From contig CAXXYH010000004.1 of the NCBI GenBank assembly GCA_963677925.2, forward strand, positions 1,120,001-1,184,000: 64,000 bases of DNA, written 5' to 3'. Made by a program: the position numbers and the translations under genes. The stretch is from Spirochaetia bacterium. Lineage in GTDB: Bacteria; Spirochaetota; Spirochaetia; UBA9216. Shown here piece by piece: positions 18,043 through 37,888 of the stretch. The notes beneath the pieces are model-generated. The model worked only from the letters and a program-made list of their open reading frames with translations, was not told the origin of the DNA and searched no databases. Numbering within the stretch: the first letter of the stretch is position 1; every line of letters starts with the position of its first letter.

Positions 18043-19116
18043 TTGGCAGTTGAAATCGTTTATGAAGAAAATAATAAAATTGGTATAATTTTCCCTTTTG
18101 ATGCCCAGATTCTGGATATTGTACGCACAATACCCGGAAGACAATGGCAGCCCGCAAATAAAAAATGGACATTTCCGGATACTGATGCAAATATGCAGCA
18201 TTTTCTCTTATCATTATATAAAACCGGCAGGTTTAATGTGGATGAGAAGGCTCTCGAAAATCAGGAACCGTCTCATAGCCGCTATTTGGAAAAAATGCTT
18301 CAGTATCTAAAGCTTAGAGACTATAGTCCTCATACTATTGAAACGTATAAGATGCAGCTCAAGTGGTTCTTTGATAGAACAGAACTTTCTCCTTCAGAAG
18401 TCACGACCGAGGATATCAAATTATATCTGGAGAAAATGCGGACACTGGCGGGGTGTTCAAGAACATACTTTGTACAATGTGTGAGCGCCCTGAAAAGCTT
18501 CTATAAGTATGGTTATCCCGGCGGTCTGTTTAATCCTGCAGCATCGATTCCCATGCCGAAAAAAGAAAAGAAGTATCCGGATATTCTATCCAGGGAAGAA
18601 GTGAAGAAGATAATAACATCTCCGTCGAATATTAAGCACCGATTGCTATTATCATTAATATACTCTGCAGGTCTCCGAGTAAGCGAAGCCGTTATAATAC
18701 AGTTGCAGGATATTGATACCGATAGGAAAGTAATTCATATCAGGCAGGCAAAAGGACGAAAAGATAGATATGTAATGCTTTCAACTGAGATTATTAATAT
18801 GATTAATCAATACAGATCCAAAGTGATGGTGCATACATGGCTTTTTCCTGGCAGTGCAGGTGCGGATACCCATCTTGCTACAAGATCTGCACAGAATGCC
18901 TTTTATAAAGCTATAGAAGCAACAGGTATCGAAAAAAATGTAAGTATACATTCTTTAAGACATGCCTTTGCCACTCATCTGTTGGAAAACGGTACAGACC
19001 TGAGATATATTCAGGAGCTCTTAGGTCACCGTGATCCAAAAACAACACAGATTTATACACATGTAAGTACTAAAGACCTAAAAAATATAAATAGTCCACT
19101 GGACGGGTTATTATGA
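18043..19116 (+). CDS. Tyrosine recombinase, putative non-canonical integron integrase
   Basis: SAM-like domain (YSPHTIETY); catalytic R (GLRVSE), K (AKGRKDR), HxxR (HSLRH), H (LLGH), Y (TQIYTHV); directly abuts the cassette array. Confidence 0.93.
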   Translation: MAVEIVYEENNKIGIIFPFDAQILDIVRTIPGRQWQPANKKWTFPDTDANMQHFLLSLYKTGRFNVDEKALENQEPSHSRYLEKMLQYLKLRDYSPHTIETYKMQLKWFFDRTELSPSEVTTEDIKLYLEKMRTLAGCSRTYFVQCVSALKSFYKYGYPGGLFNPAASIPMPKKEKKYPDILSREEVKKIITSPSNIKHRLLLSLIYSAGLRVSEAVIIQLQDIDTDRKVIHIRQAKGRKDRYVMLSTEIINMINQYRSKVMVHTWLFPGSAGADTHLATRSAQNAFYKAIEATGIEKNVSIHSLRHAFATHLLENGTDLRYIQELLGHRDPKTTQIYTHVSTKDLKNINSPLDGLL

Positions 19117-19190
19117 ATAACAGGTTTATAAGGATTTAAGCTGGAGGGTTATATGAATGATATACCAGTTTATAATTCTGAGTTTATATG
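19105..19190 (+). promoter_or_regulatory. Putative attI-like primary recombination site
   Basis: Repeated GTT(T)ATA motifs (gggttattatgaat..gtttataa and gggttatatgaat..gtttataa); the first cassette left end TTATATGCAATGGACCCGAC starts at about 19184. Confidence 0.6.
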
Positions 19191-19265
19191 CAATGGACCC
19201 GACAAGAGGAAGACGCCCGGACCTCCGGCCGACGGGCGAAGAGACATAAAGGTGGGGGATTTTTT

Positions 19266-20735
19266 ATGCAAGATTTATATATAAAATATAATAAGAAAGA
19301 TAATAAAATTGATTTTGGGCAAACAAAAGGCTCAATAATCGAGATTACTATAAAGCCACCTTCAATCGTTAAAGAAACAAAAGAAACAGGCATAACGAGA
19401 ATATCTGCTATTCAAGAAGATTTTGATAATCTAATTTCGGGAAAGAAGATGATTGACGTTAATAAAACGACTCTCGAACATTGTTATATCTTGGATAAAA
19501 AGGATCCTTACCGATTAGCGGCGACAAATTTTATTTTAAAAAATGAAAAGGATATTGAAGAATATAGTGAAATTCCAAAAGAAAATGATGCTGGTATATA
19601 TAAAAACTATGTAAAAGCATTTTTAGAAGAATTTACAAGATGTACGAAACACATTCCGTTTGCTGAAAAAATTAAAGTCTATCCTTTACCATTGTTGACT
19701 CCATGTAATGTGGAAGTATTAGTAGGTAAAGATGGTGTGTGCTTTATTTTCTCATCAGAAAGTAGACCTGAAAAAGTAAGTGTTTCCTTAGATATAAATA
19801 AAATAATAGAGGAACTTCTTCTGCCTCATCCTACTAATAGAAGATATTCATCATATGGACCTAATACTATTTTTAATTTTATCTGCTCAGATGAGAATTT
19901 TATACATGTGGTAGGGGATGGGAATGCGTTTTTAGATTCTATGCTAGGGAATCCAGTATTTTTGATTTTTGAAAAATCGTTTCATGGTTATTATTCCAAT
20001 ATGAATTTTATAAGAAATTATCCTGATACGGGACTTCAAGTTAAAAAGAAAGTTGAATATTGTGAAATATTTGGTAATAACCATATCTCTAACTTTTCAC
20101 TTGAAAACGCAAGGAGTAGAGCTAGGATAGTTGCGTATAAATCAATTTTGAGTAGTGTTACAGGAAATGTTAATAAAGTAGAAGAACTTAAAAATGTCTT
20201 GATAGAATTGAAAAACAAAATAAACAATGATGTCGGTGAAATAGAAATTGAGAAATTTATTGATTCAAATAAATGGATTTTAGAGAAAGGGATAGGGTGT
20301 CAAAAATATTTTTCACAAATTTCGATACCGAAAGATTTATTATATGATGCTGATGGTGGAATTAAACCTGATAAATATATGATGAATAATGACGGATATT
20401 GTGATATTTTAGATTTAAAAAAACCATCAGCCAAACTAATTGTAATAAAGAATAACCGCAGTCATCAATCTAGTTCTTTAACCGAAGCGGAGGCACAAAT
20501 TGATAAATATATTGATTTCTCTCGTGAACCAAAGGTTAGAGATTATTTATTAACGCTTAATATAAAAATTACGAAACCTGATGGAATTGTATTGATTGGG
20601 AGAACCCCGAAGGAATATTTAAAAGAATGGATTGATATAAAAAAGAGATTACAAATAAAAGTATATACTTATGATGATTTAGTTAATAATTTGGATAATT
20701 TAATTGATTGGATAGATAAGATTCTTACAATTTGA
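19266..20735 (+). CDS. Cassette 1: Shedu (SduA/DUF4263)-like anti-phage nuclease
   Basis: C-terminal EKFIDSNKWIL...KPD...ILDLKKP...LTEAEAQ...PDGIVLIGR...VYTYDDL; RBS ggtggggg before ATG 19266. Confidence 0.75.
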   Translation: MQDLYIKYNKKDNKIDFGQTKGSIIEITIKPPSIVKETKETGITRISAIQEDFDNLISGKKMIDVNKTTLEHCYILDKKDPYRLAATNFILKNEKDIEEYSEIPKENDAGIYKNYVKAFLEEFTRCTKHIPFAEKIKVYPLPLLTPCNVEVLVGKDGVCFIFSSESRPEKVSVSLDINKIIEELLLPHPTNRRYSSYGPNTIFNFICSDENFIHVVGDGNAFLDSMLGNPVFLIFEKSFHGYYSNMNFIRNYPDTGLQVKKKVEYCEIFGNNHISNFSLENARSRARIVAYKSILSSVTGNVNKVEELKNVLIELKNKINNDVGEIEIEKFIDSNKWILEKGIGCQKYFSQISIPKDLLYDADGGIKPDKYMMNNDGYCDILDLKKPSAKLIVIKNNRSHQSSSLTEAEAQIDKYIDFSREPKVRDYLLTLNIKITKPDGIVLIGRTPKEYLKEWIDIKKRLQIKVYTYDDLVNNLDNLIDWIDKILTI

Positions 20736-20788
20736 ATTAAGAATCCAGACCTAACTCCGTTGAACGGTCTGGATGTCGGGTCCAAAGC

Positions 20789-20882
20789 ATAAAACAGGGG
20801 CTATGTGTATCGTCGCTATGCGCTCCTCGGGCTGCGCCACATACGGCTACGCCGTACGTCACATAACACCGGGACGTTATGA
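20789..20882 (+). repeat. attC-like site 1
   Basis: ataaaac-aggggctatgtg...cacataacacc-gggac-gttatga. Confidence 0.88.
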
Positions 20883-20993
20883 GCAATAAGCCCGACAAGT
20901 AAAAGACGCCCGGACCTCCGGCCGACGGGCAAAGAGAGACAGTGTGATAAAATATTATACTAAAAAAGTAAATATAGAATTAAGGGTTTTCAT

Positions 20994-21587
20994 ATGAAAA
21001 AAATAATATGTGTTCTAATCCTTTACATATTATCTATTTTTAGTTGTGTTACAACAGAAACTGTAAATATCAAGAAAGATAGTATGGAAAAGAGTGATTC
21101 TGTCTCTAAAGAAGAATTCAAAATTAGCATAAAAGAATTTGATGATATTTCAAAATATAAAAAGCTTATAAATTTATATGCATTTAAATATAGTGATGAG
21201 AGCAATACAGAATTTCGAGTTTTTACAGGTAGATGTTCAGCTTTTGTCAGGGACAATGGATATTCATCAATATTGCTGAACAATTCTGATGAGAGAGAAA
21301 TAATAAATAGTTATGAAGGTGATTATGAAAAAATTGCTATTATAAATGTCCATACAGTTGATTTAGATAAAGAAAATGGGAAAATTATAATAATCATGTT
21401 TGGAATAAATGATGATGATAAAGAAAAAATATTGTATGTACCTTTTTGGATTGCTACAGCAGAAGGTAAAAGTGTTGAGATTTTGAAATTAAAAAGTAGA
21501 GAAGAAGTTGGAAAATACATGATAGATTGTTTTTTTAATAATATGGAAATTTCTAATGAGTTGATTTATACATTAAGTGGAAATTAG
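20994..21587 (+). CDS. Cassette 2: hypothetical lipoprotein
   Basis: MKK + hydrophobic core + IFSC lipobox. Confidence 0.8.
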   Translation: MKKIICVLILYILSIFSCVTTETVNIKKDSMEKSDSVSKEEFKISIKEFDDISKYKKLINLYAFKYSDESNTEFRVFTGRCSAFVRDNGYSSILLNNSDEREIINSYEGDYEKIAIINVHTVDLDKENGKIIIIMFGINDDDKEKILYVPFWIATAEGKSVEILKLKSREEVGKYMIDCFFNNMEISNELIYTLSGN

Positions 21588-21660
21588 ATTATTCATAACA
21601 ATGAAGGATAAAGAATCCAGCCCTAACTCCGTTGGACGGTCTGGATGTCGGGCTTAAAGC

Positions 21661-21755
21661 TCATAACAGGGGCTATGTGCTTCGTCGCTATACGCTCCTC
21701 GGGCTGCGCCACATACGGCATTCGCCGTACGTCACATAACCCCGGGACGTTATAG
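21661..21755 (+). repeat. attC-like site 2
   Basis: tcataac...cccgggac-gttatag. Confidence 0.9.
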
Positions 21756-21848
21756 CGCAATGAGCCTGACAAGATGAAAATCGCCCGGACCTCCGGCCGA
21801 CGGGCGAAGATATATATATGCTAAGTATCCAAAAAAGGTGATATGTAA

Positions 21849-22385
21849 ATGAATTATCAAACAGTCTATGATATTTCTAAATCTTCTTATAATTGGGTAT
21901 TCCCCTTTTTAGGAATACTTATAACCATTTTATTAATAATTTTTACTAAAGTGGTAAGAAGAAACTTGAAAGTTTTAAATAGGATAGAGGCAGAAAAAGA
22001 AAAAAAGGAAATTTTCTATAATTTTAATAATCCATATGTGAGTAATATGTTGAGACGATTACCCATGGTTTTCACGATATTGGCTTCTATAGCGACCGTT
22101 TTTATAACTTATGGATCTATAAATTATTATGTGAAATTAAATGAAGTGATTCAAAATCAAGAGTATTCAGTTGTTGAAGATAAAATAAAAATTATTAATA
22201 AGTTTGAAACAAATAGAATTCAAAATTTCAAAGTTGGAAAATTTATTTTTAATGTTGCGGATATAAACTCCATCAGAATCTCATTTTGGAAATCTGGAAC
22301 ATATGAAGATTTTTTAGTTGAAGGTCAAGATGTTAAAGTTTATTTTTATGGAAAGTATATTTTGCGTGTTGATTTAATGAAATGA
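21849..22385 (+). CDS. Cassette 3: hypothetical two-TM membrane protein
   Basis: Two hydrophobic segments; RBS aggtga. Confidence 0.75.
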   Translation: MNYQTVYDISKSSYNWVFPFLGILITILLIIFTKVVRRNLKVLNRIEAEKEKKEIFYNFNNPYVSNMLRRLPMVFTILASIATVFITYGSINYYVKLNEVIQNQEYSVVEDKIKIINKFETNRIQNFKVGKFIFNVADINSIRISFWKSGTYEDFLVEGQDVKVYFYGKYILRVDLMK

Positions 22386-22520
22386 ATATGCATGCAAAAT
22401 TTCTATTCATATAGTTACTATTAAAGAGTAATTACTAAGAAATTTGAGTATTATTTTAGCATATAAGAGTGGGAATCCAGACCTAACTCCGTTGAACGGT
22501 CTGGATGTCAGGCTCAAAGC

Positions 22521-22843
22521 GCATAACAGGGGCTATATGCTCGTCGCTAAACGCTCCTTGGGCTTCGCCACATTTTTATTTTCTGAATTGGGTAATTGGG
22601 TACAGCATTTAACAAGAGATTTGGAGTAGTCAAAACCTTTGTCACAGTTCTGGCTAAAGACACTCCGCGCTGATCGCGCTACGTTCCAGAACTGCGCCAA
22701 GCCTCGGAGACTCGGCCGGTTTCGCTACTCAAATCGTCGTTAAATGCACAGAAATGTGCCAATAGTTTATGATTGAGAAATACGGGTAAGTGGTGGTAAA
22801 ATTAAGAAAAATAAAAACGTCATATAACCCCGGGGCGTTATGA
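22521..22843 (+). repeat. Long attC-like site 3 with a nested attC
   Basis: Same outer stem as the short sites; contains gcatttaac (22605)...gttaaatgc (22747). Confidence 0.88.
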
Positions 22844-22960
22844 GCAATGAGCCCAACAAGAGGAAGACGCCCGGACCTCCGGCCGACGGGCGAAGAATCG
22901 ATTGGTTTGATTTTTATAACTGATAAGTGATGTCAAAAGTAATATAAAGAATAGGTTGGT

Positions 22961-23680
22961 ATGGATATACAAGAGGATAAAGTAAATAATAATTTGATTG
23001 CGCAAGATTTAGAATTAGGAGTAATAACTATGGGGGCAGCAACGATTGATCAAAGACATAATTTTGCATACCAACATATGCACTCAGCTATTGAATTTAG
23101 GAATCAAACTTATAAAATTGAAGAAGATAATAAAAACGAAAAATTTGGATATTTTTTTGAGTTGATTAGAACATATGTAAGTGGTTGTATATTCTTTTCA
23201 GTGGCTTCAGTAGAGGCAAATATAAATGAAATTATATGTGATATTATTGAAAATAAAATAAAATTAGGTGAGTTTGAAAAAAAGAAAATTATTGAAATAA
23301 ATGATAGAGAGTCTACTCTTAAAAAATACGAAATCATATTAAACGAGGTAATGAAGTTTGAATTATCAAAAGATAAAGAAATTTATCAAAATATGAAAAT
23401 TTTAATAGATGTAAGAAATGCTTTTACTCATTTCAAACCAGAATGGGAATCAAATCAGAAATGGCATGATAAAATTGGAAGAAAATTATCTGGGAAAATC
23501 AAGATGACTCCATACATAGAAGATAGCAGTCCGATTTTTCCGATGCGTTGCATGACTTATGATTTTTGTTGTTGGTCCACAATATCAAGTTATAATTTTA
23601 TGAAAGAAATTTTTAGTTTACTATCAATAAGAAATAAATTTGAGAAATTTGAAGAAACAATTTATAAGGGTAGTAATTAA
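22961..23680 (+). CDS. Cassette 4: putative HEPN-domain protein
   Basis: Helical protein with SVEANIN and an RNAFTH (Rx4H) motif. Confidence 0.6.
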   Translation: MDIQEDKVNNNLIAQDLELGVITMGAATIDQRHNFAYQHMHSAIEFRNQTYKIEEDNKNEKFGYFFELIRTYVSGCIFFSVASVEANINEIICDIIENKIKLGEFEKKKIIEINDRESTLKKYEIILNEVMKFELSKDKEIYQNMKILIDVRNAFTHFKPEWESNQKWHDKIGRKLSGKIKMTPYIEDSSPIFPMRCMTYDFCCWSTISSYNFMKEIFSLLSIRNKFEKFEETIYKGSN

Positions 23681-23761
23681 TATAATTATATAGCTTATTT
23701 TTATAGTGTAAGGGAATCCAGACCTATCTCCGTCGAACGGTCTGGATGTTGGGCTCAAAGC

Positions 23762-24085
23762 GCATAACAGGGGCTATATGCATCGTCGCTAAATGCTCCT
23801 CGGGCTGCGCCACATTTTTATTTTGTAATTGGGTTAATAGGGTATAGCATTTAACAAAAGATTTGGAGTAGTCACAACCTTTGTCACAGTTCTGGCTAAA
23901 GACACTCCGCGCTGATCGCGCTGCGTTCCAGAACTGCGCCAAGCCTCGGTGACTCGGCCGGTTTCGCTACTCAAATCGTCGTTAAATGCACAGACATGTG
24001 CCAATAGTTTATGATTGTGAAATACGGGTAAGTGGTGGTAAAATTAAGAAAAATAAAAACGTCATATAACCCCGGGACGTTAGCT
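23762..24085 (+). repeat. Long attC-like site 4 with a nested attC
   Basis: Near-identical to site 3; inner element at 23847-23989. Confidence 0.88.
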
Positions 24086-24213
24086 GCAATTTCGGTCATG
24101 GTAATTATCTAATTAGTAGGAGCCCGCCTTCCATGGCGGTCAGGATAGAAGAAGTAAATATCTACATTTTGATACATTTTTTAAATAAACAATCTAAATA
24201 ATAAGGAATTTTA

Positions 24214-24933
24214 ATGAAAAAAAAGAGAATTATATCAATACTTCTATGTCTTTTTTCAACATCGGTCTATGCAGAAACAAATGATGTTCCAAATGGAATG
24301 ATCATAGAATCATCTTCTAATAATGGACAATCAATTCTTGTAAGAAAACATGACCAAGTTTTGACGATTGATTACTCTGCGCACGATTTTCAAATGGTTA
24401 TTTATGATTCTCCAATAAATAAAGAAAAAATTGGGGAATTGAAAAAGAAGGATGTAATACGAATAAAAGAAATACATATTATTGATGATAACGAAATGTG
24501 GTTTAAAATTTCTGCTTCTGAGAAAAATGGTTATATCTTATTTAAAATTGGTGAAAATATTTATGATTTCTACGCTGATAATTTATGGCAACCAGTAGAA
24601 ACTATTCAGAGTGGGGAGCAAACTTGGCATACATTAAAATGTAATCAGAGTTTTATTGTTTATACTAATTTGTTTATTCGTGATAAACCTGGATTTGGTG
24701 GGGAAAAAATAGGAATGATAACTGCAAATAATAGCAATTCCGAAATAGTAAGCACTTCAGAAGTTACTGTTGAAAAAGAGAAGATTGATGGAAAAACTGA
24801 ACGCTGGGCTAAAATTGAATATTAAGGACTAATTGGTTGGGTATTTGCAGGTTATTTGAGTTATGAAAGAGGTGGGCCTAGGTTTAATACTCCCGAATCA
24901 ATGATAGCAATGAGTCTTGGCGCAGGTATTTAA
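24214..24933 (+). pseudogene. Cassette 5: secreted SH3b-domain protein with an in-frame stop
   Basis: Signal peptide; IRDKPG...WAKIEY*GLIGWVFAGYL reads through TAA 24823-24825 to a stop at 24933. Confidence 0.8.
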
Positions 24934-25040
24934 ATTTTTAGATATTATTATAATTCGTGGAAATTTAAATTGTTTTACAGAGTCAAATACATCCTTGTAT
25001 TTGACAGAATTAATCACTTGACAACCATGACGGAAACAGC

Positions 25041-25367
25041 AGCTAACAGGGGTTATTTGCTTCGTCGCTATGTGCTCCTCGGGCTTCGCAACATTTTTAT
25101 TTTTGTAAATGGACGATATGACAAAAGGCATTTAACAATGATTTGCAGCAGTCCTGGCTATTTTCACGGTTTTAGCTAAAGACGTTCCGCGCTGATCGCG
25201 CTGCACTCTAAAACCGAGCCAATGCCGTAGGAGACTACGGCCGCCAGGCAGCTGAAATCGGCGTTAAATGCACAGACATGTGCCAATAGTTTATGATTGA
25301 GAAATACGGGTAAGTGGTGGTAAAATTAAGAAAAATAAAAACGTCATATAACCCCGGGACGTTATAC
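25041..25367 (+). repeat. Long attC-like site 5 with a nested attC
   Basis: agctaac...gttatac; inner element at 25128-25271. Confidence 0.88.
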
Positions 25368-25399
25368 GACATATCACATATCTAAAATGGAGTAAAAAA

Positions 25400-25807
25400 G
25401 TGAGTGAAAGACCGTTTAAAGAAAAATCGAATGAACCTACAAACGAAAAAATAAATGAAGCACTCGGTGCTGTTTCCGAATATTATCATGATTTAAATAA
25501 ATTGACAAAAGATTTTCAACACACCTGGAATCATTCAAAATCCAGTGGCTGGATGGAAAAAGTAGAAGATAATAAAAAAGCTCTTTACTATTTTATTCCG
25601 TTGAATGATTCCTTTATTCTGAGTATGGCTATTAGAGAAAATGAAAAAGAATATTTTGAGTCTAAAGAGGGTATGGTAAAATATAAAGATATAGTATCAA
25701 CCGCCAGAAAATATTCGGAAGGATATAATATAAAATTTGAGGTAGAAAACTCTGAGCAATACGATTTTTCAAAAGAGTTTGTAAAAGAAATAATTGCTCA
25801 AAGGTAG
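25400..25807 (+). CDS. Cassette 6: DUF3788-like protein
   Basis: PTNEKINEALG...W...GW...KKALYYFIP pattern; GTG start with RBS ggag. Confidence 0.7.
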   Translation: MSERPFKEKSNEPTNEKINEALGAVSEYYHDLNKLTKDFQHTWNHSKSSGWMEKVEDNKKALYYFIPLNDSFILSMAIRENEKEYFESKEGMVKYKDIVSTARKYSEGYNIKFEVENSEQYDFSKEFVKEIIAQR

Positions 25808-25821
25808 ATATGTGAAACGTC

Positions 25822-25915
25822 GTATAACAGGGGCTATGTGCTTCGTCGCTATACGCTCCTCGGGCTGCGCCACATACGGCTTCGCCGTACGTCACATAAC
25901 CCCGGAACGTTATCT
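25822..25915 (+). repeat. attC-like site 6
   Basis: gtataac...cccggaac-gttatct. Confidence 0.9.
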
Positions 25916-25977
25916 GACATACCCAGAAAAGTTCCGACCCTCACCATCCGTGGTTCGGGTTTTAAGAAGAAGAGAAA

Positions 25978-26724
25978 ATGAATATTGAATGTATTATTAA
26001 AGAAGCTGGAAGAAAGTTAAAGAACGAATATTTGGAAACGCCTCTTGTCTCAGTTAAAGAAAGATATGATTTAGTAAGTCAAAGTGATAAGAGGATTGAA
26101 GAGGAATTAATAAAAGAGATTATAAAGTTGTTTCCAAATGATGATATTTATTCAGAAGAAATTGGAGAAATTAAGAATGAAGGAAGATCAAGATGGATTA
26201 TAGATCCAATTGATGGAACCGCTGATTTTATTTTTGGAGTCCCGTACTTTGCAATATCAATCGCAAAAGAAGTAGATGGGATAATTGAAGAAGGTTATGT
26301 ATATAATCCAATATCGGAAGAGTTTTATAAATCAATTAAAAATGAAAGAAAATCCTACCTCAATGATGTAGAAATAAAAGTTTCAGAAAAAAATGTAATT
26401 GAAGAATCTTTAATTGCTTTCGGATTTAGTGCCAATGAAGAGAATATGAATTTATATCTTTCTGAATGGTCTAATCTCATGAATGATTGTAGAAAGGCAA
26501 TGCCATTAATCACTCCTGCATTAACAATTTGTAATGTCGCAAGAGGAAGGATCGACGCTTACATAGATTTTGGTTCAAGTATGGAAGGAAAAGCTGCTGC
26601 CAGTATGATATTGCTGAATGCAGGAGGAAGTATTCGGAATTATTATAGAGAGGGTTTTGATCATAGAGAAAAAGGACATATATGTAGCAATGGAAGATTG
26701 GATCTTGAAGAAGGAAGAGGTTAG
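25978..26724 (+). CDS. Cassette 7: inositol monophosphatase family protein
   Basis: SEE and WIIDPIDGT motifs; VARGRIDAY. Confidence 0.9.
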   Translation: MNIECIIKEAGRKLKNEYLETPLVSVKERYDLVSQSDKRIEEELIKEIIKLFPNDDIYSEEIGEIKNEGRSRWIIDPIDGTADFIFGVPYFAISIAKEVDGIIEEGYVYNPISEEFYKSIKNERKSYLNDVEIKVSEKNVIEESLIAFGFSANEENMNLYLSEWSNLMNDCRKAMPLITPALTICNVARGRIDAYIDFGSSMEGKAAASMILLNAGGSIRNYYREGFDHREKGHICSNGRLDLEEGRG

Positions 26725-26783
26725 GAAGAAAAATAAGTACATCCCTGTACTTATTTTAGAGGTATAATAAAAATGGGTACGTC

Positions 26784-26875
26784 AGATAACAAGGGTTACA
26801 CGCTCCGGCCATACGGCCTGCGGGCTGAGCCACATTCGGCTACACCGAACGTCGTGTAACCCTGGAACGTTATCT
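26784..26875 (+). repeat. attC-like site 7
   Basis: agataac-aagggttacac...gtgtaaccct-ggaac-gttatct. Confidence 0.88.
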
Positions 26876-26990
26876 GCAATGTTTCCGCCAAGAGGAAGAT
26901 GCCCGGACCTCCGGCCGACGGGCGAAGAAGAATGAGGTTTGAATATACTAATTAGTGAGATAAGATAAAATAAAAAAATGAGGTAGCATT

Positions 26991-27560
26991 ATGAAAGTGT
27001 TTATTTTAACTGTTTTAGGAGTAGTCTCAACAAGAATTTTGGATTTATTCACTACATATAAAATTACTCCGGATTTAGAGAAAGAAAGTAATTTATTTGT
27101 AAAGTTGCTTGGGGAAACTGGAGGTTGGGCAGCGATTTGGATATTTCAAGCAATTGTAGTAATTTTACTTCTCTATTTAGAATATTTAAGAATAAAAAGT
27201 CCAACCGTCGAATATGTAGAAGATGAGGGTTTGAAATTTAAAGAATATTTTTCATTAAATTATTCGAGTAAGAAAGATGATTTAATAAAATCAGTAATGA
27301 ATTTACCATTAAAGAAGAGGTTGATGATCGATCTATTAGGATATATTGGTACAAGAACTTTACTATTTGGAACAATTCCTGTCTGTTTATCAAGTCTGTT
27401 TGCGATTTTAAACTCTTCTTATCGAAGTTTCTATGTAGATAATAGTTTATGGAGAATACTGTATTTAATAATGGCAGTAGTATTAGTGAGTTTTTATATA
27501 AGATTTTTTTGGATAAGATTTAAGGATTATGAGAAGAAAGATATTTTAAAGAAAATGTAA
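26991..27560 (+). CDS. Cassette 8: hypothetical multi-TM protein
   Basis: Four hydrophobic segments; RBS gaggt. Confidence 0.75.
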   Translation: MKVFILTVLGVVSTRILDLFTTYKITPDLEKESNLFVKLLGETGGWAAIWIFQAIVVILLLYLEYLRIKSPTVEYVEDEGLKFKEYFSLNYSSKKDDLIKSVMNLPLKKRLMIDLLGYIGTRTLLFGTIPVCLSSLFAILNSSYRSFYVDNSLWRILYLIMAVVLVSFYIRFFWIRFKDYEKKDILKKM

Positions 27561-27637
27561 GAAAGAGAGAAAGAGAGAAAGAGAGAAACCAGCCCTGGCT
27601 CCGCCGTACGGTCTGGCTGAAGAGGCGGAAACACAGC

Positions 27638-27816
27638 AGATAACAGCGGCTATGTGCGGCGTCGCTAAACGCTCCTTGGCCTACGGCATATTTTGTTTTG
27701 GCATCGCTTTTGCGAAGAGGTAGAAAAATATAGGGTAAAGGCGTCGAATGCAAAAGTGCTGCCAATCGGCCTGTAGGGCCGACCACAAAACATCACATAA
27801 CCGCGGGACGTTATAG
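27638..27816 (+). repeat. attC-like site 8 (extended apical arm)
   Basis: agataac-agcggctatgtg...cacataaccgc-gggac-gttatag. Confidence 0.85.
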
Positions 27817-27930
27817 GAAATATTTTGGCTAAGAGAAAGACGCCCGGACCTCCGGCCGACGGGCAATAAGGAAAAAAAGAATAAATTTTAAAATTGATAT
27901 ATTATGTCAATATATAAGAAATGAAACGTA

Positions 27931-29057
27931 TTGAAAAGGATTCTATTATTTTTATTATTATTAGGAATAACCTCATGTAAAAACTTTTTTCCATATTATC
28001 AAAATGGATACCATTTCAATCAAATATTTTCTAAAGATACAAAACTTATTTTAGATGAAAAAGCAGATTCATTCTCTGCGTTTATATCTGAGACTTCTAA
28101 AGTTTTAGTATATTATAGTACTGATGGGATGGTGCACTTGATAGATTTGGAAGGATTGATTGAAGTTTCCACCATCCCTTGGGTTGATAATTCAAATTAT
28201 TATAATGATATTGTTCCTGATTTTAAACAATTGTATATTTATGAAAATTATTTGTATCTTCTAGGGTCAACAGATTGTCTGGTATATTTGATTGAGGATA
28301 TATCAAATCCATCTTTTAAATATTCTATTAGTGAAAATAATACCTATAATTTAAACACTACCTATTATTTAAGTTTAAGATGTATGGATAATAAAATATA
28401 TATTTTAGATTCTAATTCATTTTCATACTATAAACTATTATTAATTTTGGATGCAGATAATATGCTAGAAATTGAAAGACATTATTTAGATTCTTTTGAA
28501 GGAGTAATTGATAAAGAAATTTACTTAAATTCAAATTATTTATACACTTTTTCAAGTGAGCTTAAAATTGATAAAGATGGTAATCCTTTTACAATAACAA
28601 ATCAAATGATTGTTTATGATATTACTGATATTTCTAATAATTATGAATTGGTCGATATAAATTCTATCAGTTTAGAGGACAATGGATTTAATATATATAA
28701 TGATATTATAGTAAGTGATGGAGCAATAGGTTTAAATTCAGAAGAGTATTTTTGGAGCATAATAAAATTAGATAGTGAAAAAAATATGAATTTCTACAAA
28801 AATGTAATTCAACAGATGAAATAAACTTGTTTAGTTATTTTGATTTAGATTTTGATTTTAATAATATTTTAATCGGGAATTATTTTGTTTATGATATAAG
28901 AGAGTTAAATAGTCCAAGATGGATTGGGACTATTGATGAGGATTTGAAAGACATCGAAGTTGTAAGAAAACTTCAAACTGGAGATAACTTATTTTTATTT
29001 GAAAAAGGTAGTGATAGTGAGAATGAAATAGCTTTAGTGAAGTATGCTTTTAATTGA
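27931..29057 (+). pseudogene. Cassette 9: LVIVD-repeat-like lipoprotein split by a frameshift
   Basis: ITSC lipobox; DISNP, YDITDI and YDIRELNSP repeats; the frame changes near the A run at about 28798-28802. Confidence 0.7.
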
Positions 29058-29156
29058 TAAAGTTTGTTTTGGGATACTGTTAAAGTTGAAAGTTGTATGT
29101 TTAAGAGTCCAGCCCTATCTCCGATGTACGGTCTGGCTCAAGAGCCAAAATACTTC

Positions 29157-29479
29157 CTATAACAGGGGCTATATGCTCAGCCCATTCGGGCTTCGGGCTG
29201 CGCCACATTTTTATTTTATGGATTGGGCTATTTGGGTATAGCATTTAACAAAAGTTTTGGAGCAGTCCTGGCTATTGTCATGATTCTGGCAGAGACGTTC
29301 CGCGCTGATCGCGCTGCACTCCAGAATCACGCCAATGCGCGCGAAGACACGCGCCGCCATGCAGCTCAAAACGTCGTTAAATGCACAGACATGCGCCAAT
29401 AGTTTGTGATTGGTAAATACGGGTAAGTGGTGGTAAAATTAAAAAAATAAAAACGTCATATAACCCCGGGACGTTATGC
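29157..29479 (+). repeat. Long attC-like site 9 with a nested attC
   Basis: ctataac...gttatgc; inner element at 29241-29384. Confidence 0.88.
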
Positions 29480-29950
29480 GGACATCGCCGGAGCATGGTT
29501 ATGGGGTGGAGAAAGTTCCGAACAAGAAGTGATTACCAAATAGTTTGCAATATTCAATTCGCCCTAGATTGAGGAAGATTTTTGATTTTGATTTGGATGT
29601 TGTTGGAAGAAGGTCGTTAAAATTGACGAAGCTTGTTCTGGCGTGAAAGAAAAAGTATTGTCTTAAAATTATCAAAATCTTTTTTGAAGATGGAGCAGGT
29701 TTTACCATTTTGCAAGTCTGATTCACTCGCATAGCTCGTTGACTTGCGACTTAATAAAAATGATTGTTTTACTTGCAAAGGGCGAATAGAATATTGAGAA
29801 GAAATAGAAAGAGAAGATTGTATAGATTATTTGATTGATCGGAATCTTTCTCTAATAAAGGCGACGTCGCATAACAGGGCACATGCGGCTACGGGGTCAA
29901 GCCCCTTCGCCCAAATTGGCCTGCGGCCAACTTCGCATATGCCCGGGACG
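29474..29950 (+). other. Cassette 10: ORF-less structured cassette (includes attC-like site 10, 29869-29956)
   Basis: No credible + strand ORF; nested inverted repeats; diverged tandem copy follows. Confidence 0.8.
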
Positions 29951-30426
29951 TTATGCGGACATCGCCGTAGCATGATCTTGGGGTGGAGAAAGTTCCGAAC
30001 CAGAAGTGATTACCAAATAGTTTGCAATATTCAATTCGCCCTGGATTGAGGGAGATTTTGGATTTTGATTTTGTGGTTGTCAGAAGAAAGCCGTTGCATC
30101 TGACGAAGTTTATTCTGACGTGGAAAAAAGTATTGTTTTATAATTATCAAAATCTGCTTCGTGGACTTGGCAGGGTTTTCCGTTTGGCAAGTCTGCCTCA
30201 CTCGCTTTGCTCGTTGACTTGCAGGTGAAATAAAAATGATTGTGAAAGTCGCAAAGGGCGAATAGAATATTGGGTAGAAATGGTAAGAGGAGATTTGTTA
30301 GGTCATTTGATTGATCGGAATCTTTCTCTAATAAAGGCGACGTCGCATAACAGGGCACATGCGGCTACGGGGGCAAGCCCCTTCGCCCAAATTGGCCTGC
30401 GGCCAACTTCGCATATGCCCGGGACG
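29951..30426 (+). other. Cassette 11: ORF-less structured cassette, paralogue of cassette 10 (includes attC-like site 11, 30345-30432)
   Basis: 476 bp versus 477 bp; stems conserved while linkers have diverged. Confidence 0.8.
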
Positions 30427-30500
30427 TTATAGGAAATGCCCATCAAAATCTTTGAAAGATCCTCGCCATCCATGGCTCGGTTTAGAAGAATAGAAAGAAG

Positions 30501-30529
30501 TTGACAATCCACTACAATGTAATTACAGT
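30501..30529 (+). promoter_or_regulatory. Sigma70 promoter of the brnT-brnA cassette
   Basis: TTGACA-17 bp-TACAGT, overlapping palindrome tgtaattaca. Confidence 0.7.
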
Positions 30530-30535
30530 ATAAAT

Positions 30536-30820
30536 ATGGAACATATCCAGTTTGAATGGGATAATAAGAAAGATGAGCTAAATCAGAAGAAGCATAAGAT
30601 AGGTTTTGACGAGGCAAAAACTGTATTTTATGATCCATCTGCATTGTTGATTCATGATCCAGATCATTCTGAAGATGAAGAAAGATTCATAATTATGGGG
30701 ATGAGTCAAAGCTTGAAGATCTTAGTTGTTTGTCATTGTTATAGATCTAATGATGAAGTTATACGAATAATATCTGCTAGAAAAGCAGAGAAAGAAGAGA
30801 TTAGGCAATATGGAGGATGA
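30536..30820 (+). CDS. brnT: Cassette 12: BrnT-family toxin
   Basis: FEWDNKK...NQKKHKIGF...EERFIIMG...IRIISARKA. Confidence 0.93.
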   Translation: MEHIQFEWDNKKDELNQKKHKIGFDEAKTVFYDPSALLIHDPDHSEDEERFIIMGMSQSLKILVVCHCYRSNDEVIRIISARKAEKEEIRQYGG

Positions 30821-30824
30821 AGAT

Positions 30825-31040
30825 ATGAGAGATTCATATGATTTTTCGAATGCAAGAAAGAATCCTTACATTACAAAATTAAAGAAGCAAATCACAATCA
30901 GATTGGATGAAGAAACCATAGATTATTTTAAAGAGATGTCAGAAGAATCAGGGATAAAATATCAGCAATTAATAAATCTTTATCTGGCTGATTGTGCAAA
31001 GAAAAATCTAAAATTAAATATAAATTGGAAAGCCTCTTAA
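30825..31040 (+). CDS. brnA: Cassette 12: BrnA-family antitoxin
   Basis: YDFSNARKNPY...KKQITIRLD...YQQLIN. Confidence 0.9.
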   Translation: MRDSYDFSNARKNPYITKLKKQITIRLDEETIDYFKEMSEESGIKYQQLINLYLADCAKKNLKLNINWKAS

Positions 31041-31093
31041 AGCCCAAAGTACGTCCTGTACTTTGGGTAAATAATAAAAGTGATGGGCACTTC

Positions 31094-31188
31094 CTATAAC
31101 AGGGGCTATGTGCTTCGTCGCTATGCGCTCCTCGGGCTGCGCCACATACGGCTTACGCCGTACGTCACATAACCCCTGGACGTTAGCT
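31094..31188 (+). repeat. attC-like site 12
   Basis: ctataac...gttagct. Confidence 0.9.
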
Positions 31189-31313
31189 GAAATGCCCCCG
31201 CGAAGAGAAAGACGCCCGGACCTCCGGCCGGCGGGCGATAAGGAAATTATAATATGCATAATTGATTTACAAGTCTAAATATAGTACTATATAAGCACTA
31301 ATAGGAGTTTATT

Positions 31314-31598
31314 ATGAATTTAAGAGAAGATATTAAGCCGATTTCATATATTAAAACAAACGCAGCAGACATGTTAAAACGTGTTAATGATACTCACAAC
31401 CCGATTGTAATAACCCAGAATGGTGAAGCAAAAGCAGTTTTGATGGATACTGAATCATATCAAGAAATGAGGAATAGTCTTGGAATTTTAAAATTGCTTG
31501 CAGAAGGTGAACGTGATATCGAAAAGGGAGATATCTATACACAAGATGAAGTTTTTGAAGAAATTGAAGCAAAACTGTTAAATATGAAGAAGAAATAA
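31314..31598 (+). CDS. Cassette 13: Phd/YefM antitoxin
   Basis: IKPISYIK...PIVITQNGEAKAVLMD. Confidence 0.92.
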   Translation: MNLREDIKPISYIKTNAADMLKRVNDTHNPIVITQNGEAKAVLMDTESYQEMRNSLGILKLLAEGERDIEKGDIYTQDEVFEEIEAKLLNMKKK

Positions 31599-31602
31599 TG
31601 AT

Positions 31603-31917
31603 ATGGAAGTTATTTGGACTAAAACAGCAAAAAATGATTTAAATGAGATAGTTGAATATATAGCAAATGACTCTGTAGAAATAGCATTAAATAAATTTTA
31701 TGAAATTAGAGAAAGTACTAAACCCTTAGAGAAATTTCCTGAACAAGGAAGACTGATTCCAGAATTAAGAAATGAAAACATCTTGCGATATAGGGAAATT
31801 ATAATAAACCCATGGCGGATAATGTATAAAATAGAAGATAAGAAAGTTTATATTATAGCAGTCATAGATGGAAGAAGAAATGTTGAAGATGTTTTAATGA
31901 AAAGGCAACTTCGTTAA
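31603..31917 (+). CDS. Cassette 13: RelE/ParE-family toxin
   Basis: VIWTKTAKNDLNEIVEYIA...FPEQGR...WRIMY...VIDGRR. Confidence 0.9.
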   Translation: MEVIWTKTAKNDLNEIVEYIANDSVEIALNKFYEIRESTKPLEKFPEQGRLIPELRNENILRYREIIINPWRIMYKIEDKKVYIIAVIDGRRNVEDVLMKRQLR

Positions 31918-31982
31918 AGAAACATTAAAAGAATCCAGACCTAACTCCGTCGAACGGTCTGGATGAAGAGCGGGGGCACTAC

Positions 31983-32075
31983 AGCTAACAGGGGCTATGT
32001 GCATCGTCGCTATACGCTCCTCGGGCGCGCCACATACGGCTTCGCCGTACGTCACATAACCCCGGGACGTTAGAC
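31983..32075 (+). repeat. attC-like site 13
   Basis: agctaac...gttagac. Confidence 0.9.
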
Positions 32076-32128
32076 GAAATCACGAACCTAAGAGAAAGAG
32101 GATGCTTGCCATCCTTGGCAAGCAAAGA

Positions 32129-32157
32129 TTGACAAATTTATGTAATTACTATATAAT
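32129..32157 (+). promoter_or_regulatory. Consensus sigma70 promoter of the mazEF cassette
   Basis: TTGACA-17 bp-TATAAT overlapping gtaattac palindromes. Confidence 0.85.
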
Positions 32158-32176
32158 TACAATAAAGAGGTGTATT

Positions 32177-32425
32177 ATGTTAGTTTCAGTGGTTCCTATA
32201 GGCAATTCAAAAGGAATACGAATTCCGAAGAGCATTTTGCAACAGTTAAATATTGAAGAAAAAGTTGAATTAGAAGTGCATAATACAGAAATACTGATTA
32301 GACCAATAAAGAAAAAGCCAAGGGAAGGATGGTCCGAAGAGTTTATGAAGATGCATCAAAATGGGGATGATTCATTACTTTTAGACAATTTGACTGAACA
32401 GGGTGATTTTGAATGGGAATGGTAA
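32177..32425 (+). CDS. mazE: Cassette 14: AbrB/MazE antitoxin
   Basis: IGNSKGIRIPK motif; RBS gaggtg. Confidence 0.9.
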   Translation: MLVSVVPIGNSKGIRIPKSILQQLNIEEKVELEVHNTEILIRPIKKKPREGWSEEFMKMHQNGDDSLLLDNLTEQGDFEWEW

Positions 32426-32742
32426 TTCATCAATATGAGGTATATTTAATAAACTTAGATCCAACAGTTGGCCATGAAATAAAAAAGACAAGACCTTGTT
32501 TAGTGATTTCACCAAATGAAATGAATGAAACAATCCAGACTATTATTATCGCTCCAATGACAACAAAATCACATACATATCCTACTCGTGTAGCTGTTAA
32601 GTTTCAAAATAAAGATGGATGGATTGTTTTAGATCAATTAAGAACTGTTGATAGGAAGAGATTAATTAAAAAGATTGGTAAAATAAATAGAAAAGAAGTA
32701 GATCTCGTCAAGAATGTGCTACAGGAAATGTTAATAGATTAA
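32413..32742 (+). CDS. mazF: Cassette 14: PemK/MazF toxin
   Basis: LDPTVGHEIKKTRPCLVIS...DQLRTVD. Confidence 0.94.
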   Translation: MGMVIHQYEVYLINLDPTVGHEIKKTRPCLVISPNEMNETIQTIIIAPMTTKSHTYPTRVAVKFQNKDGWIVLDQLRTVDRKRLIKKIGKINRKEVDLVKNVLQEMLID

Positions 32743-32791
32743 AGCCAAACAACATCCATGTTGCTTGGCTTTGAAGAAGGTTCGTGACATC

Positions 32792-32882
32792 GTCTAACAA
32801 GGGTTATTCGCTCGTCACTACGCTCCTCGGGCTGCGCCACATACGGCTTCGCCGTACGTCACATAACCCCGGAACGTTATCC
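32792..32882 (+). repeat. attC-like site 14
   Basis: gtctaac...gttatcc. Confidence 0.88.
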
Positions 32883-32973
32883 GAAATATTGTGGCTTGAA
32901 GAAACTCGCCTTCCTTGGCTCGTTAGAAAGAATTAAGATTGATAAAAATTAAAAAGTGTTGTACAATGTACAT

Positions 32974-33366
32974 ATGAGCATATTGGTAGATGCAAACATA
33001 TATTTAGCAGTAATTCTCGATGAGCCGGAAAAAAGCAAAATTATTGGATTAACTCAGGAAGATGATCTGATATCACCGGTTGTTTTACCTTTCGAAGTGG
33101 GAAACGCTCTATCTGCAATGTATAAAAGAAATAGATTAGATAAAAGTCAAATAATTGATTGTTATTCAATATTTCAGAAAATACCAGTGCGTTTGATTGA
33201 TGTTAATATTCAAAACTCATTAGTAATAGCAGCAGATTATGGAATATATGCCTACGATGCGTATTATTTGGAGATAGCAAAACGATACAAATGCAGTTTG
33301 TTGAGTTTGGATAATAGAATGAAAGAAGTGGCTAATGATTTAGGAGTTCACTTATTGGAGGTCTGA
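32974..33366 (+). CDS. vapC: Cassette 15: PIN/VapC toxin (toxin-first order)
   Basis: ILVDAN, EVGNAL, YDAYYL, SLD acidic PIN residues. Confidence 0.9.
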   Translation: MSILVDANIYLAVILDEPEKSKIIGLTQEDDLISPVVLPFEVGNALSAMYKRNRLDKSQIIDCYSIFQKIPVRLIDVNIQNSLVIAADYGIYAYDAYYLEIAKRYKCSLLSLDNRMKEVANDLGVHLLEV

Positions 33367-33591
33367 ATGAGAGTTTTTAATTATTCAGAAGCAAGGCAGA
33401 ATTTCGCTTCAATATTGAATATGGCAGCAGAAGAAGATGTCATAATAGCAAAGAAGGATGGAAGCAGATTTAAGATTGTACCGCTTACTAAAAATGAAAG
33501 CAAATCACCATTTGATGTTCCAGGAATTAAAAGTAAAGTTACAACCAAAGAAATTCTTGATGTAATTAGAGAAACTCGAGAGTTATCGTAG
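33367..33591 (+). CDS. Cassette 15: Phd-like antitoxin
   Basis: FNYSEARQNFASILN...VIIAKKDG. Confidence 0.85.
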   Translation: MRVFNYSEARQNFASILNMAAEEDVIIAKKDGSRFKIVPLTKNESKSPFDVPGIKSKVTTKEILDVIRETRELS

Positions 33592-33643
33592 AGAAGAAAG
33601 CCGTAATTACGTCCTGTAATTACGGCTTAAGCCACAATACTTC

Positions 33644-33725
33644 AGATAACAAGGGTTACACGCTCCGGCCATTCGGCCTACGCCCAAATTGCTGCGCAAC
33701 TTCGCTTAACCCTGGAACGTTAGCT
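33644..33725 (+). repeat. attC-like site 15
   Basis: agataac-aagggtta...taaccct-ggaac-gttagct. Confidence 0.88.
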
Positions 33726-33846
33726 GAAATGCAACCGCTAAGAGAAAGACGCCCGGACCTCCGGTCGACGGGCGATCATGAAGAGAAAGAATATAAAAAT
33801 TGACATGATATATATCAAGGTATATACTTAAAATAGAGGTGGGTAT

Positions 33847-34077
33847 ATGCAAACGGCAAAAATTTTTCAAAATGGAAGATCTCAAGCTATTAGGATACCG
33901 AAAGAATATCAGTTTAAAGGTGATGAAGTATACATTCAAAAGCATGGCGATGCTGTACTGTTGATTCCGCATGAAAAAGCTTGGGAAGTCTTTATGGAAG
34001 GCATAAATGAGTTCACAGAAGATTTTATGAAAGATGGAAGAGAACAAGGCGAAGTACAAGAGAGAGAAGCATTTTAA
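33847..34077 (+). CDS. vapB: Cassette 16: VapB antitoxin
   Basis: AKIFQNGRSQAIRIPKEY; promoter TTGACA-17-TATACT upstream. Confidence 0.94.
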   Translation: MQTAKIFQNGRSQAIRIPKEYQFKGDEVYIQKHGDAVLLIPHEKAWEVFMEGINEFTEDFMKDGREQGEVQEREAF

Positions 34078-34475: not shown

Positions 34476-34529
34476 AAGAATCCAGCCCTAACTCCGTCGA
34501 ACGGTCTGGATGAGGAGCGGTGGCACTAC

Positions 34530-34623
34530 AGCTAACAGGGACTATGTGCTCGTCGCTTTATGCTCCTCGGCCTTCGCCACATACGGCTTACGCCGTACGT
34601 CACATAACCCCGGGACGTTATGT
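34530..34623 (+). repeat. attC-like site 16
   Basis: agctaac...gttatgt. Confidence 0.88.
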
Positions 34624-34686
34624 TCAATGCCCGGCTTAAGAGCTTAATAGTCCTCGGCAATCCGTGGCCTCGGGAAGGAAGAAGAA

Positions 34687-36239: not shown

Positions 36240-36261
36240 AACCAAACCTGCCGGGCAATAA

Positions 36262-37211: not shown

Positions 37212-37229
37212 TCAATATGTCAATAAACA

Positions 37230-37880: not shown

Positions 37881-37888
37881 CATACTAC

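Follow-up and report, generated by a model that had tools for sequence, protein, structure and literature searches.

The best-known recombination site that works as folded single-stranded DNA is attC, and the strand of it that integron integrases recombine is the bottom strand. To our knowledge, the textbook attC includes neither accessory hairpins alongside it nor a 20-bp extension of its stem beyond the R box, and a full-text literature search did not find accessory hairpins beside attC. Here we describe short hairpins with a TCC loop that stand in pairs, of two types called A and B, around the cargo gene of most cassettes in an integron-like array of Spirochaetia bacterium (assembly GCA_963677925.2). 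The DNA analysed, hereafter the window, is a stretch of 64,000 nucleotides (C4:1120001-1184000, C4 being contig CAXXYH010000004.1) of a 5.04-Mb genome assembled in 4 contigs; positions without a contig prefix are those of the window. The hairpins resemble attC in being strand-specific and structure-based, in conserving little of their stem sequence, in lying at cassette ends and in having the same strand polarity as attC. They differ from it in having no R and L boxes and in being placed outside the interval from R'' to R'.

Several described elements share features with them. TD-2 (RF03162, clan CL00124), which was discovered in Treponema denticola as a candidate small RNA, has the same outer hairpins as reverse complement and, read on the TCC strand, the same order of 3'-type hairpin, middle hairpin and 5'-type hairpin. 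It differs in its middle element, which in the cassettes is an attC of 85-320 nt with a 20-bp extension instead of the GAGUUU..AAACUC hairpin, and in that each module of the array is shared by two cassettes; moreover, type A has no Rfam counterpart. The main text, at least, of the source paper of TD-2 does not discuss it (Weinberg et al. 2017, PMC5737381). The same paper reports the DUF1874 motif, a multi-stem element of consecutive intergenic regions for which a complex attC-like single-stranded DNA structure was proposed (Weinberg et al. 2017, PMC5737381). The window element is not an instance of that motif, since no Rfam family of any sort matched the window at its gathering score or at E<=1. 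TwoAYGGAY (RF01731) likewise has AYGGAY loops on one strand and is multi-copy, sometimes in doublets, with unknown function; unlike the cassette elements, its two hairpins sit on a common basal stem, it is found in Pseudomonadota and Bacillota, and it has no match in the window. One TD-2 locus of another genome matched its model weakly (38.7 bits, for a cutoff of 43). Repetitive extragenic palindromic (REP) sequences with their mosaic elements (BIME), and the subterminal hairpins of IS200/IS605 elements, are also short one-strand hairpins in direct orientation, recognised by structure and a few bases, and, as TD-2, they are intergenic and multi-copy. In contrast to these systems, the present genome has no Y1 transposase gene and its hairpins are not dispersed.

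In the window, the cassette array occupies about 19184-40306 on the + strand, and 23 units were counted. Eight of them (cassettes 1, 2, 3, 4, 8, 9, 13 and 16) carry a type A pair, with eight 5' elements and eight 3' hairpins in the very same cassettes, as the earlier note on this DNA had listed. A clear type B pair is found in six cassettes (5, 7, 12, 14, 15 and 19b) and a degenerate one in two (17 and 18a), six have neither hairpin (6, 10, 11, 18b, 19a and 20), and the last, cassette 21, is a remnant whose sole element is a variant 5' one. Both hairpins are therefore present in 14 clear and two degenerate cassettes, which upholds the claim that they bracket the gene in most cassettes, and, the truncated last unit excepted, a clear hairpin at one end is never without a counterpart at the other. 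Cassettes 18 and 19, which had been taken as single units, each consist of two. TCC is always on the coding strand of the cassettes, and the hairpins are always placed in the interval from attC to start codon and in that from stop codon to attC.

The two hairpins predicted for cassette 1 were both found, a type A 5' element at 19214-19238 (CGCCCGGACCTCCGGCCGACGGGCG) and a type A two-tier 3' hairpin at 20743-20774 (ATCCAGACCTAACTCCGTTGAACGGTCTGGAT). The other type A pairs, all on the + strand and with the 5' element given first, lie at 20907-20931 and 21615-21646 (cassette 2), 21782-21806 and 22475-22506 (cassette 3), 22868-22892 and 23716-23747 (cassette 4, inner stem ATC/GTC), 26900-26924 and 27587-27618 (cassette 8, inner stem GGC/GCC), 27841-27865 and 29107-29138 (cassette 9, inner stem ATC/GAT), 31213-31237 and 31933-31964 (cassette 13, inner stem AAC/GTC with one A.C), and 33750-33774, with one substitution, and 34480-34511 (cassette 16). 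The variant 5' element of the terminal remnant is at 40282-40306 (+), with no attC after it. Type B pairs, also on the + strand, lie at 24122-24141 (GCCCGCCTTCCATGGCGGTC) and 24982-25005 (cassette 5), 25934-25958 (apex ACCATCCGTGGT) and 26730-26757 (cassette 7), 30461-30480 (apex GCCATCCATGGC) and 31043-31067 (cassette 12), 32103-32124 and 32741-32772 (cassette 14), and 32905-32922 (CTCGCCTTCCTTGGCTCG) and 33598-33628 (cassette 15); the coordinates of the 5' hairpins of cassettes 7, 12 and 15 were read by eye. The 5' hairpin of cassette 14 is 3 nt upstream of a promoter-like TTGACA-17-TATAAT site. In cassette 19b, the 5' hairpin is at 38594-38613 and the apex of a type B-like 3' hairpin at 39470-39482 (GGGCATCCATGCC).

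The type A 3' and type B hairpins fold well, with z scores from -3.0 to -6.4. The type A 5' element has z scores of -0.9 and -1.2: it consists of a 6-bp outer stem with a 13-nt apex, and its energy is unremarkable, so that TCC at the tip, as claimed for all of these elements, is in this one an interpretation. Its outer stem shows limited covariation, the second pair being C-G in 33, A-T in 6 and G-C in 2 (n=56). For the type A 3' hairpin, a search blind to the loop was made for the two-tier hairpin on the sense strand of this and related genomes, and gave 46 distinct copies; the antisense control gave 2. In this set, 88.7% of cells were paired versus 80.5% after shuffling (none of 500 shuffles was as high), both sides had changed in 7 of 11 pairs, and in slid registers 22-46% of cells were paired. 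The loop contained TCC in 39 of the 46 copies, the others being GTT (3), GGT (2), TTC (1) and CGCAT (1). TCC is therefore preferred, and the notion of a fixed loop has to be dropped. Nor do the stems vary freely, as had been supposed: the type B apex is conserved, with GCC..GGC at the 5' end and (G)TAC..GTA(C) at the 3' end, and the arms contain an A-run and a T-run. Two further features were considered and discarded. A pseudoknot between the TCC loop and the purine-rich linker (GAGG), sought by eye, would use pairing that is unconserved among type A copies, and the resemblance of the AAC/GTT inner stem of the window's type A 3' hairpins to a mini R-box (R''/R') is lost in other copies, which have GGC/GCC, GAC/GTC, GCC/GGC or ATC/GAT.

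A second integron of the same genome, on contig C3, has its cassettes on the minus strand and also includes hairpin-bearing cassettes. Cataloguing hairpins inside versus outside the arrays, as had been proposed, showed them to be confined to these two arrays, strand-specific and paired. Among perfect hairpins with a stem of at least 8 bp, the loop was TCC on the + strand in 6 of 10 in the window array and GGA in none; in the C3 array, plus-strand GGA was found in 5 of 28 and the opposite orientation in none; in the remaining genome, 39 TCC and 37 GGA loops occurred among 1009. The type B apex C[AG]TCC(N)TG with a stem was present 15 times in the two arrays, always in cassette sense, and 24 times elsewhere, versus 0 in arrays and 9-27 elsewhere for five control apexes. 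The type A 5' core occurred 16 times in the two arrays, and elsewhere gave three matches, each with 2 mismatches. Counts elsewhere being at chance level, the hairpins are not genome-wide repeats in this genome. Dispersal of REP-like copies outside the array, which the earlier note had named as the observation that would speak against a cassette-bound signal, is thus not seen here, and is seen in related spirochaetes, where type B is the dispersed TD-2. Two solitary type B 3'-like hairpins stand outside the arrays, at C4:10263-10292 (locus L110, 1763-1792) and C3:2060335 (locus L111), in sense and at -4 and +4 nt from the stop codons of a tetratricopeptide repeat (TPR) protein gene and of a 174-aa open reading frame (ORF). 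The one at C4:10263 is followed, about 50 nt further downstream, by an ordinary hairpin-plus-T-run terminator.

Comparison with relatives tied type B to TD-2. Its 3' apex (GTACATCCNTGTAC) was found in 25 of 151 genomes of the class, for 5 control matches in all, and copies were scattered over the chromosome in genome G007 and in one genus with 2.76-Mb genomes. All of 11 scattered loci matched the Rfam TD-2 model at or above its gathering score. In the alignment, the type B 5' hairpin corresponds, as reverse complement, to hairpin 1 of TD-2 (accgccAUGGAUggcggu), and the type B 3' hairpin to its hairpin 3 (..gugcAcGGAUgcac.., which has A-rich and U-rich arms). The outer hairpins of both have AYGGAY-type loops and conserved apexes (gccAUGGAUggc; guAC/gugcAcGGAUg..) and follow one another in the same order on the DNA; the middle hairpin GAGUUU..AAACUC is the part that the cassettes do not have, attC with its extension standing in its place. 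In sequence, type B is thereby shown to be kin to TD-2, and the hairpins are a variant of a known, uncharacterised motif family and not a new kind of signal. The full-length TD-2 model (98 positions, at least 48.7 bits) found no copy in the present genome, where 150 of 576 and 36 of 547 candidates were scored. TD-2 was present in 7 of 101 sampled genomes of the class, including all 4 other genomes of the same family (20, 9, 3 and 1 copies). Some of its copies form tandem arrays of 2-5 units of about 100-113 nt (loci L143, L144, L139 and L153; genomes G007 and G006), the units being separated by a conserved CAGGAGGAAT(G)A block. A small ORF in some tandem TD-2 units (Shine-Dalgarno sequence and ATG, 38 codons, CCN at the loop) was discarded by eye, as other copies have no ATG or have it in another frame.

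Type A was located in arrays in every genome examined. Its 16-nt core was found in 14 of 41 relatives; exact, clustered copies were those of same-family genomes, and outside the family each copy had one mismatch. A 21-nt version matched 84 stretches of a genome collection, and of the 80 listed, 66 came from records named Spirochaet-. The remaining 14 listed were mostly short contigs of metagenome-assembled genomes, with three high-G+C actinobacterial records that are taken as chance matches. Strict automated patterns under-detect the hairpins in tables of 5'/3' co-occurrence: they gave a 3' partner for 67 of 169 type A 5' contexts, and another 36 were cut by locus ends. When 22 cassettes apparently devoid of a partner were inspected by eye, a variant 3' hairpin was recognised in 18, and the remaining 4 either were mis-delimited or lacked one. 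In two of the 18 (loci L017 and L062) a type A 5' element faced a type B 3' hairpin, and concordance of the two classes is accordingly not absolute. In genome G043 (locus L137, G043:C1:1221001-1241000, minus strand), Treponema-like integron cassettes carry a small G+C-rich hairpin right after R', often with a TTCG loop, followed by a purine-rich AAGAAAGAAG; its position and flanks resemble those of the 5' element described here, and it has no TCC.

The sites that bound single cassettes in the window are attC sites with R'' ..AAC and R' GTT.. boxes, of a family called type 1 (TAACAGGGGCTATGTG ... CACATAACCCCGGGACG|TTAT); that of cassette 1 spans 20784-20879 (+), from R'' ..AAAAC to R' ACG|TTA. 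Copies of type 1 attC occur only within arrays. The first ~20 nt of each cassette pair with the 20 nt immediately upstream of its own R'' box; in cassette 1, the 5' arm at 19184-19205 (+) pairs with 20774-20796. Among 30 distinct cassettes, positions 11-18 of this terminal stem are Watson-Crick in 27-30, and position 10 is A.C on the top strand, that is T.G on the bottom strand, in 24. The arms are cassette-specific and covary, and the hairpins beside them are nearly identical from one cassette to another, which argues for a constraint on the hairpins at the level of sequence. Because the crossover lies inside R', the terminal stem becomes, in the excised circle, an extension of the attC stem by about 20 bp. 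The order in the circle is then 3' hairpin, arm, attC, arm, 5' hairpin, the hairpins flanking the extension. Circularly permuted modules indeed fold as attC with its extension and two flanking hairpins, with the bottom strand 2.7-8.1 kcal/mol more stable than the top one in each of 9 cassettes. The type A 5' core is 30-34 nt from the crossover (in 46 of 169 contexts, those that fit the strict R' pattern).

The window array is preceded by a tyrosine recombinase gene (18043-19116, +) that adjoins it on the same strand. Its product is Xer/IntI-like and has no IntI-specific insert: it scored 194 bits in two stretches against TIGR02249, for a cutoff of 265, and segments of 31 and 9 aa of the canonical IntI of this genome are missing from it. 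The N-terminal domain is HARP-like, with a borderline match (25.2 bits, for a cutoff of 25) and weak fold matches to the N-terminus of T4 UvsW (Z 6.1), XPB (Z 4.9) and the HARP domain of SMARCAL1. Domains of the HARP, UvsW N-terminus and XPB type bind branched DNA. The window array may be an integron-like system run by a non-IntI recombinase. The same arrangement of a Xer-like recombinase gene followed by an array was found in genomes G001, G006 and G007, and the 7 type 1 attC copies of G007 all fall within 3,516,947-3,529,142, a stretch that includes the array of the Xer-like recombinase. A 310-aa ORF upstream of the recombinase was discarded as an accessory gene, being conserved only in the same genus. 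The second integron has a canonical IntI gene (locus L005, 13199-14458; C3:128199-129458; 382.5 bits against TIGR02249), divergent to an array that runs from about C3:127.4 kb downwards on the minus strand and uses a different attC family, type 2, of ~165 nt (ATAACAAGAGATTTGGAGTAGTC...GCTACTCAAATCGTCGTTA). Both recombinase/array arrangements were seen again in sister genomes. Two cassettes are common to the arrays, near-identical copies of window cassettes 14 and 9 being present in the C3 array. At about C3:117988-117242 (loci L004/L005), the ~350 nt found ahead of the first cassette are repeated, the attI-proximal region having been duplicated inside the array.

We tentatively favour, at somewhat less than an even chance, the reading in which the hairpins are accessory single-stranded DNA elements beside attC that are recognised by a protein; the DNA level, the recognition and an effect on recombination are inferred. 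The TCC-tip hairpins would be the outer hairpins of a three-part module spanning each cassette junction, made of the 3' hairpin of one cassette, the extended attC, and the 5' hairpin of the next, and in the excised circular cassette the three parts would be contiguous and all its own. Type B corresponds to TD-2 hairpins 3 and 1 on the opposite strand, attC replacing the middle hairpin of TD-2, and type A would be a second version, so far seen only in integron arrays. The module would fold on the bottom strand, with GGA (AYGGAY-like) loops, and a protein would recognise the hairpins through the near-constant loop and apex. Flanking and delimiting the 20-bp extension of the attC stem, they might aid attC folding or recombination while not being required for either. 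Mismatch polarity favours the bottom strand: mismatches of the type A 3' inner pair were A.C in 7 copies and G.U in none, and isolated internal mismatches of type B and TD-2 hairpins were A.C in 9 and G.T in 2, counts that are small and come from related, hence not independent, copies. Position 10 of the arm stem has the polarity expected of the bottom strand too, and Rfam models TD-2 on the GGA-loop strand.

A number of observations weigh against this proposal. The hairpins alone showed no difference of folding energy between strands. They accompany two attC types, and their distance from the crossover differs between these: where the attC is of type 2, the 5' element is ~85 nt away, behind a promoter-like block (..AATAAAAATGTTAG..GGGTGTAAAAT) that is conserved, and no long arm pairing is seen. 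Hairpins that go with both attC types and geometries are tied to neither one. The length of the type B linker varies from 0 to 19 nt, and since 6 of 23 cassettes have no hairpins, a cassette can belong to the array without them. No fold match of the N-terminal domain of the window recombinase reaches the level that the tool considers meaningful, and the N-terminal extension of the canonical IntI on C3 is unrelated to it, no homology between the two extensions being detectable. In a TD-2-rich genome, the canonical integron shows no TCC hairpins in its cassettes over 60 kb, and the TD-2 elements of related spirochaetes are scattered, far from integrons, so that this type of hairpin is not integron-specific in spirochaetes and its bracketing of attC is what is special here. 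Finally, the surroundings of TD-2 in the four other same-family genomes recall those of an RNA element: the TCC strand is co-oriented with the genes, 14 of 18 clusters start at most 60 nt downstream of a co-oriented stop codon, a convergent gene is opposite the cluster in only 2 of 18, and a T-tract follows the 5'-type hairpin, like that of a sense-strand terminator. The evidence on the strand is thus in conflict, mismatch polarity pointing to the bottom strand and the gene context of sister TD-2 to the sense strand. What stands of the idea of a single-stranded structure formed together with the terminal stem, put forward in the earlier note, is the covarying adjoining stem and the polarity of its mismatches; the cassettes devoid of hairpins and the two attC geometries weigh against it.

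It is possible, and we think it only a little less likely, that the hairpins act in the sense transcript. The 3' hairpin would then shield the 3' end of the mRNA or determine where it lies, and the 5' hairpin would shield the 5' end or keep upstream read-through out of the cassette; an RNA-binding protein or a ribonuclease would recognise the UCC loop, and the whole would serve as an expression frame. The location of the hairpins between attC and the start and stop codons, with TCC on the coding strand throughout, is in keeping with such a frame, as are the stop-codon context and the T-tract of sister TD-2, where a co-oriented gene moreover often starts 8-82 nt downstream, and the sense placement of the two solitary 3'-type hairpins at stop codons of this genome. 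It would also suit elements that are optional and independent of the attC type, the conservation of GGGTGTAAAAT at 9-19 nt upstream of the 5' element with type 2 attC, and the cargo, which is never clearly reversed: the reverse strand had the longer ORF in 4 of 67 type A brackets, all four of at least 2038 nt. Mismatch polarity, however, favours the antisense strand, and in cassettes 9 and 12-16 a promoter-like TTGACA/TATAAT site is located downstream of the 5' hairpin, which places this hairpin outside the cassette's own transcript there. Moreover, no T-tract follows the hairpins of the window on the sense strand, an invariant 13-nt apex is needless in a plain stabiliser, orientation to genes looked mixed at 13 sites of the TD-2-rich genus, and outside the arrays of this genome the type B motif was placed after a stop codon in sense in 5 of 24 cases versus 9 of 78 for controls, which is not clearly higher. 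Plain intrinsic terminators, a G+C-rich hairpin followed by a T-run on the transcribed strand, deserve hardly any credence. They would account for the T-tract of sister TD-2, and three hairpins of the window were called terminator-like on the antisense strand, where pyrimidine-rich tails follow; yet none of the TCC hairpins was called on the sense strand in 19000-38900, a conserved loop would be needless, and the genome uses ordinary hairpin-plus-T-run terminators elsewhere, as downstream of the C4:10263 hairpin.

We consider it unlikely that the hairpins merely are a REP-like repeat family, or one resembling miniature inverted-repeat transposable elements (MITE-like), akin to TD-2 and with no role in the integron, which would be kept through inheritance, through homologous exchange among the conserved ends of cassettes, or through spreading on its own. 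TD-2 is indeed multi-copy and sometimes tandem, its copy number in related genomes ranging from 0 to at least 36, cassettes can do without the hairpins, and the related TwoAYGGAY is described as multi-copy and REP-associated, of unknown function (10.64898/2026.09.22.753630). Such a family would not be expected to have its copies, in this genome, only in cassettes, in one orientation and as 5'/3' pairs, kept while the adjoining arms diverge with compensation; in addition, type 1 attC copies are absent outside arrays, and no match to a Y1 HUH transposase (PF01797) of the IS200/IS605 type was found in the genome, which is 99.63% complete, so that IS200/IS605 mobilisation was rejected here. Very improbable in our view is a part for CsrA, by which antisense transcripts of the array would expose A(N)GGA hairpin loops that bind this protein, the array being a CsrA sponge or target. 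Like the CsrA/RsmE hairpins, those of the array are short, with an A(N)GGA loop on the bottom strand and CA/UG closing pairs. The bottom-strand apexes (e.g. GUACAGGGAUGUAC, GCCAAGGAUGGC) fit the CsrA/RsmE consensus, RUACARGGAUGU / CANGGANG; a csrA gene is present (90.8 bits), and mismatch polarity favours the right strand. But this role, unlike that of CsrA/RsmE sites, would need a putative antisense transcription, the two sites of one cassette are 0.5-1.5 kb apart, the type A loops are bare GGA triloops, and the literature examined has no tie of TD-2 or TwoAYGGAY to CsrA.

A reusable frame into which new genes are captured, as the earlier note imagined, survives as a low-probability hypothesis on the genesis of cassettes from TD-2-like intergenic modules, gene capture being putative. 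In its most explicit form, to which we give little chance, the attC-centred module would derive from the TD-2 intergenic element and, as TD-2 does in sister genomes, would insert just past a stop codon and ahead of the following gene; a gene lying between two such modules would become an excisable cassette with both hairpins, and the co-oriented Xer-like recombinase with its HARP-like domain would read the branched module. No attC-centred module was found outside arrays.

The genes within the frame are varied. Cassette 1 (19184-20876, +) carries a Shedu SduA_C-like defence gene at 19266-20735, with 19266 as its probable start codon, and the other cargo includes an inositol monophosphatase, ParE, MazF/PemK and PIN, as well as several genes of no family. 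BLASTP comparison of all pairs among 16 cassette ORFs, that of cassette 1 not being among them, gave no match. Judged by their sequences, the genes flanked by the hairpins are unrelated to each other, as had been claimed, with the same frame around them. The toxin-antitoxin cassettes (ParE, MazF/PemK, PIN; 31314-31917, 32102-32742 and 34077-34475) have promoter-like sites of their own. Cassettes 10 and 11 (29474-30426) are a near-identical tandem of ~477 nt units with no convincing ORF and no TCC hairpins, and their terminal pairing is longer and in two parts. At the boundary of units 19a and 19b (38540-38560), the GTTA core of R' is lost (..CGCGGGATGGCAAT..), and these units are probably fused and no longer separable. 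Four long attC sites are composite (22516-22837, 23757-24079, 25036-25361 and 29152-29473), each being a type 1 attC whose loop encloses a complete type 2 attC (GCATTTAAC...GTTAAATGC) with its flanks. A promoter-like TTGAGA-18-TAAAAT site with extended TG, directed toward the next cassette, is also present in them (e.g. 22773-22802 and 25297-25326).

These results link two hitherto unconnected things, an orphan and uncharacterised Rfam motif of spirochaetes, TD-2, which is kin to the AYGGAY-loop hairpins, and the attC sites of integrons. The practical gain is modest while strand and level await experiment. Hairpins acting on DNA would be without precedent as accessory structured elements beside attC, and would give a handle on TD-2. 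If they act on RNA, large chromosomal integron cassettes can carry a standard untranslated-region frame of their own. At either level, the finding that unrelated genes are set in an identical frame is relevant to how cassettes come about. Should derivation of the module from TD-2 prove true, it would explain the common frame of unrelated genes and offer a route to the de novo formation of integron cassettes, which is a long-standing question.

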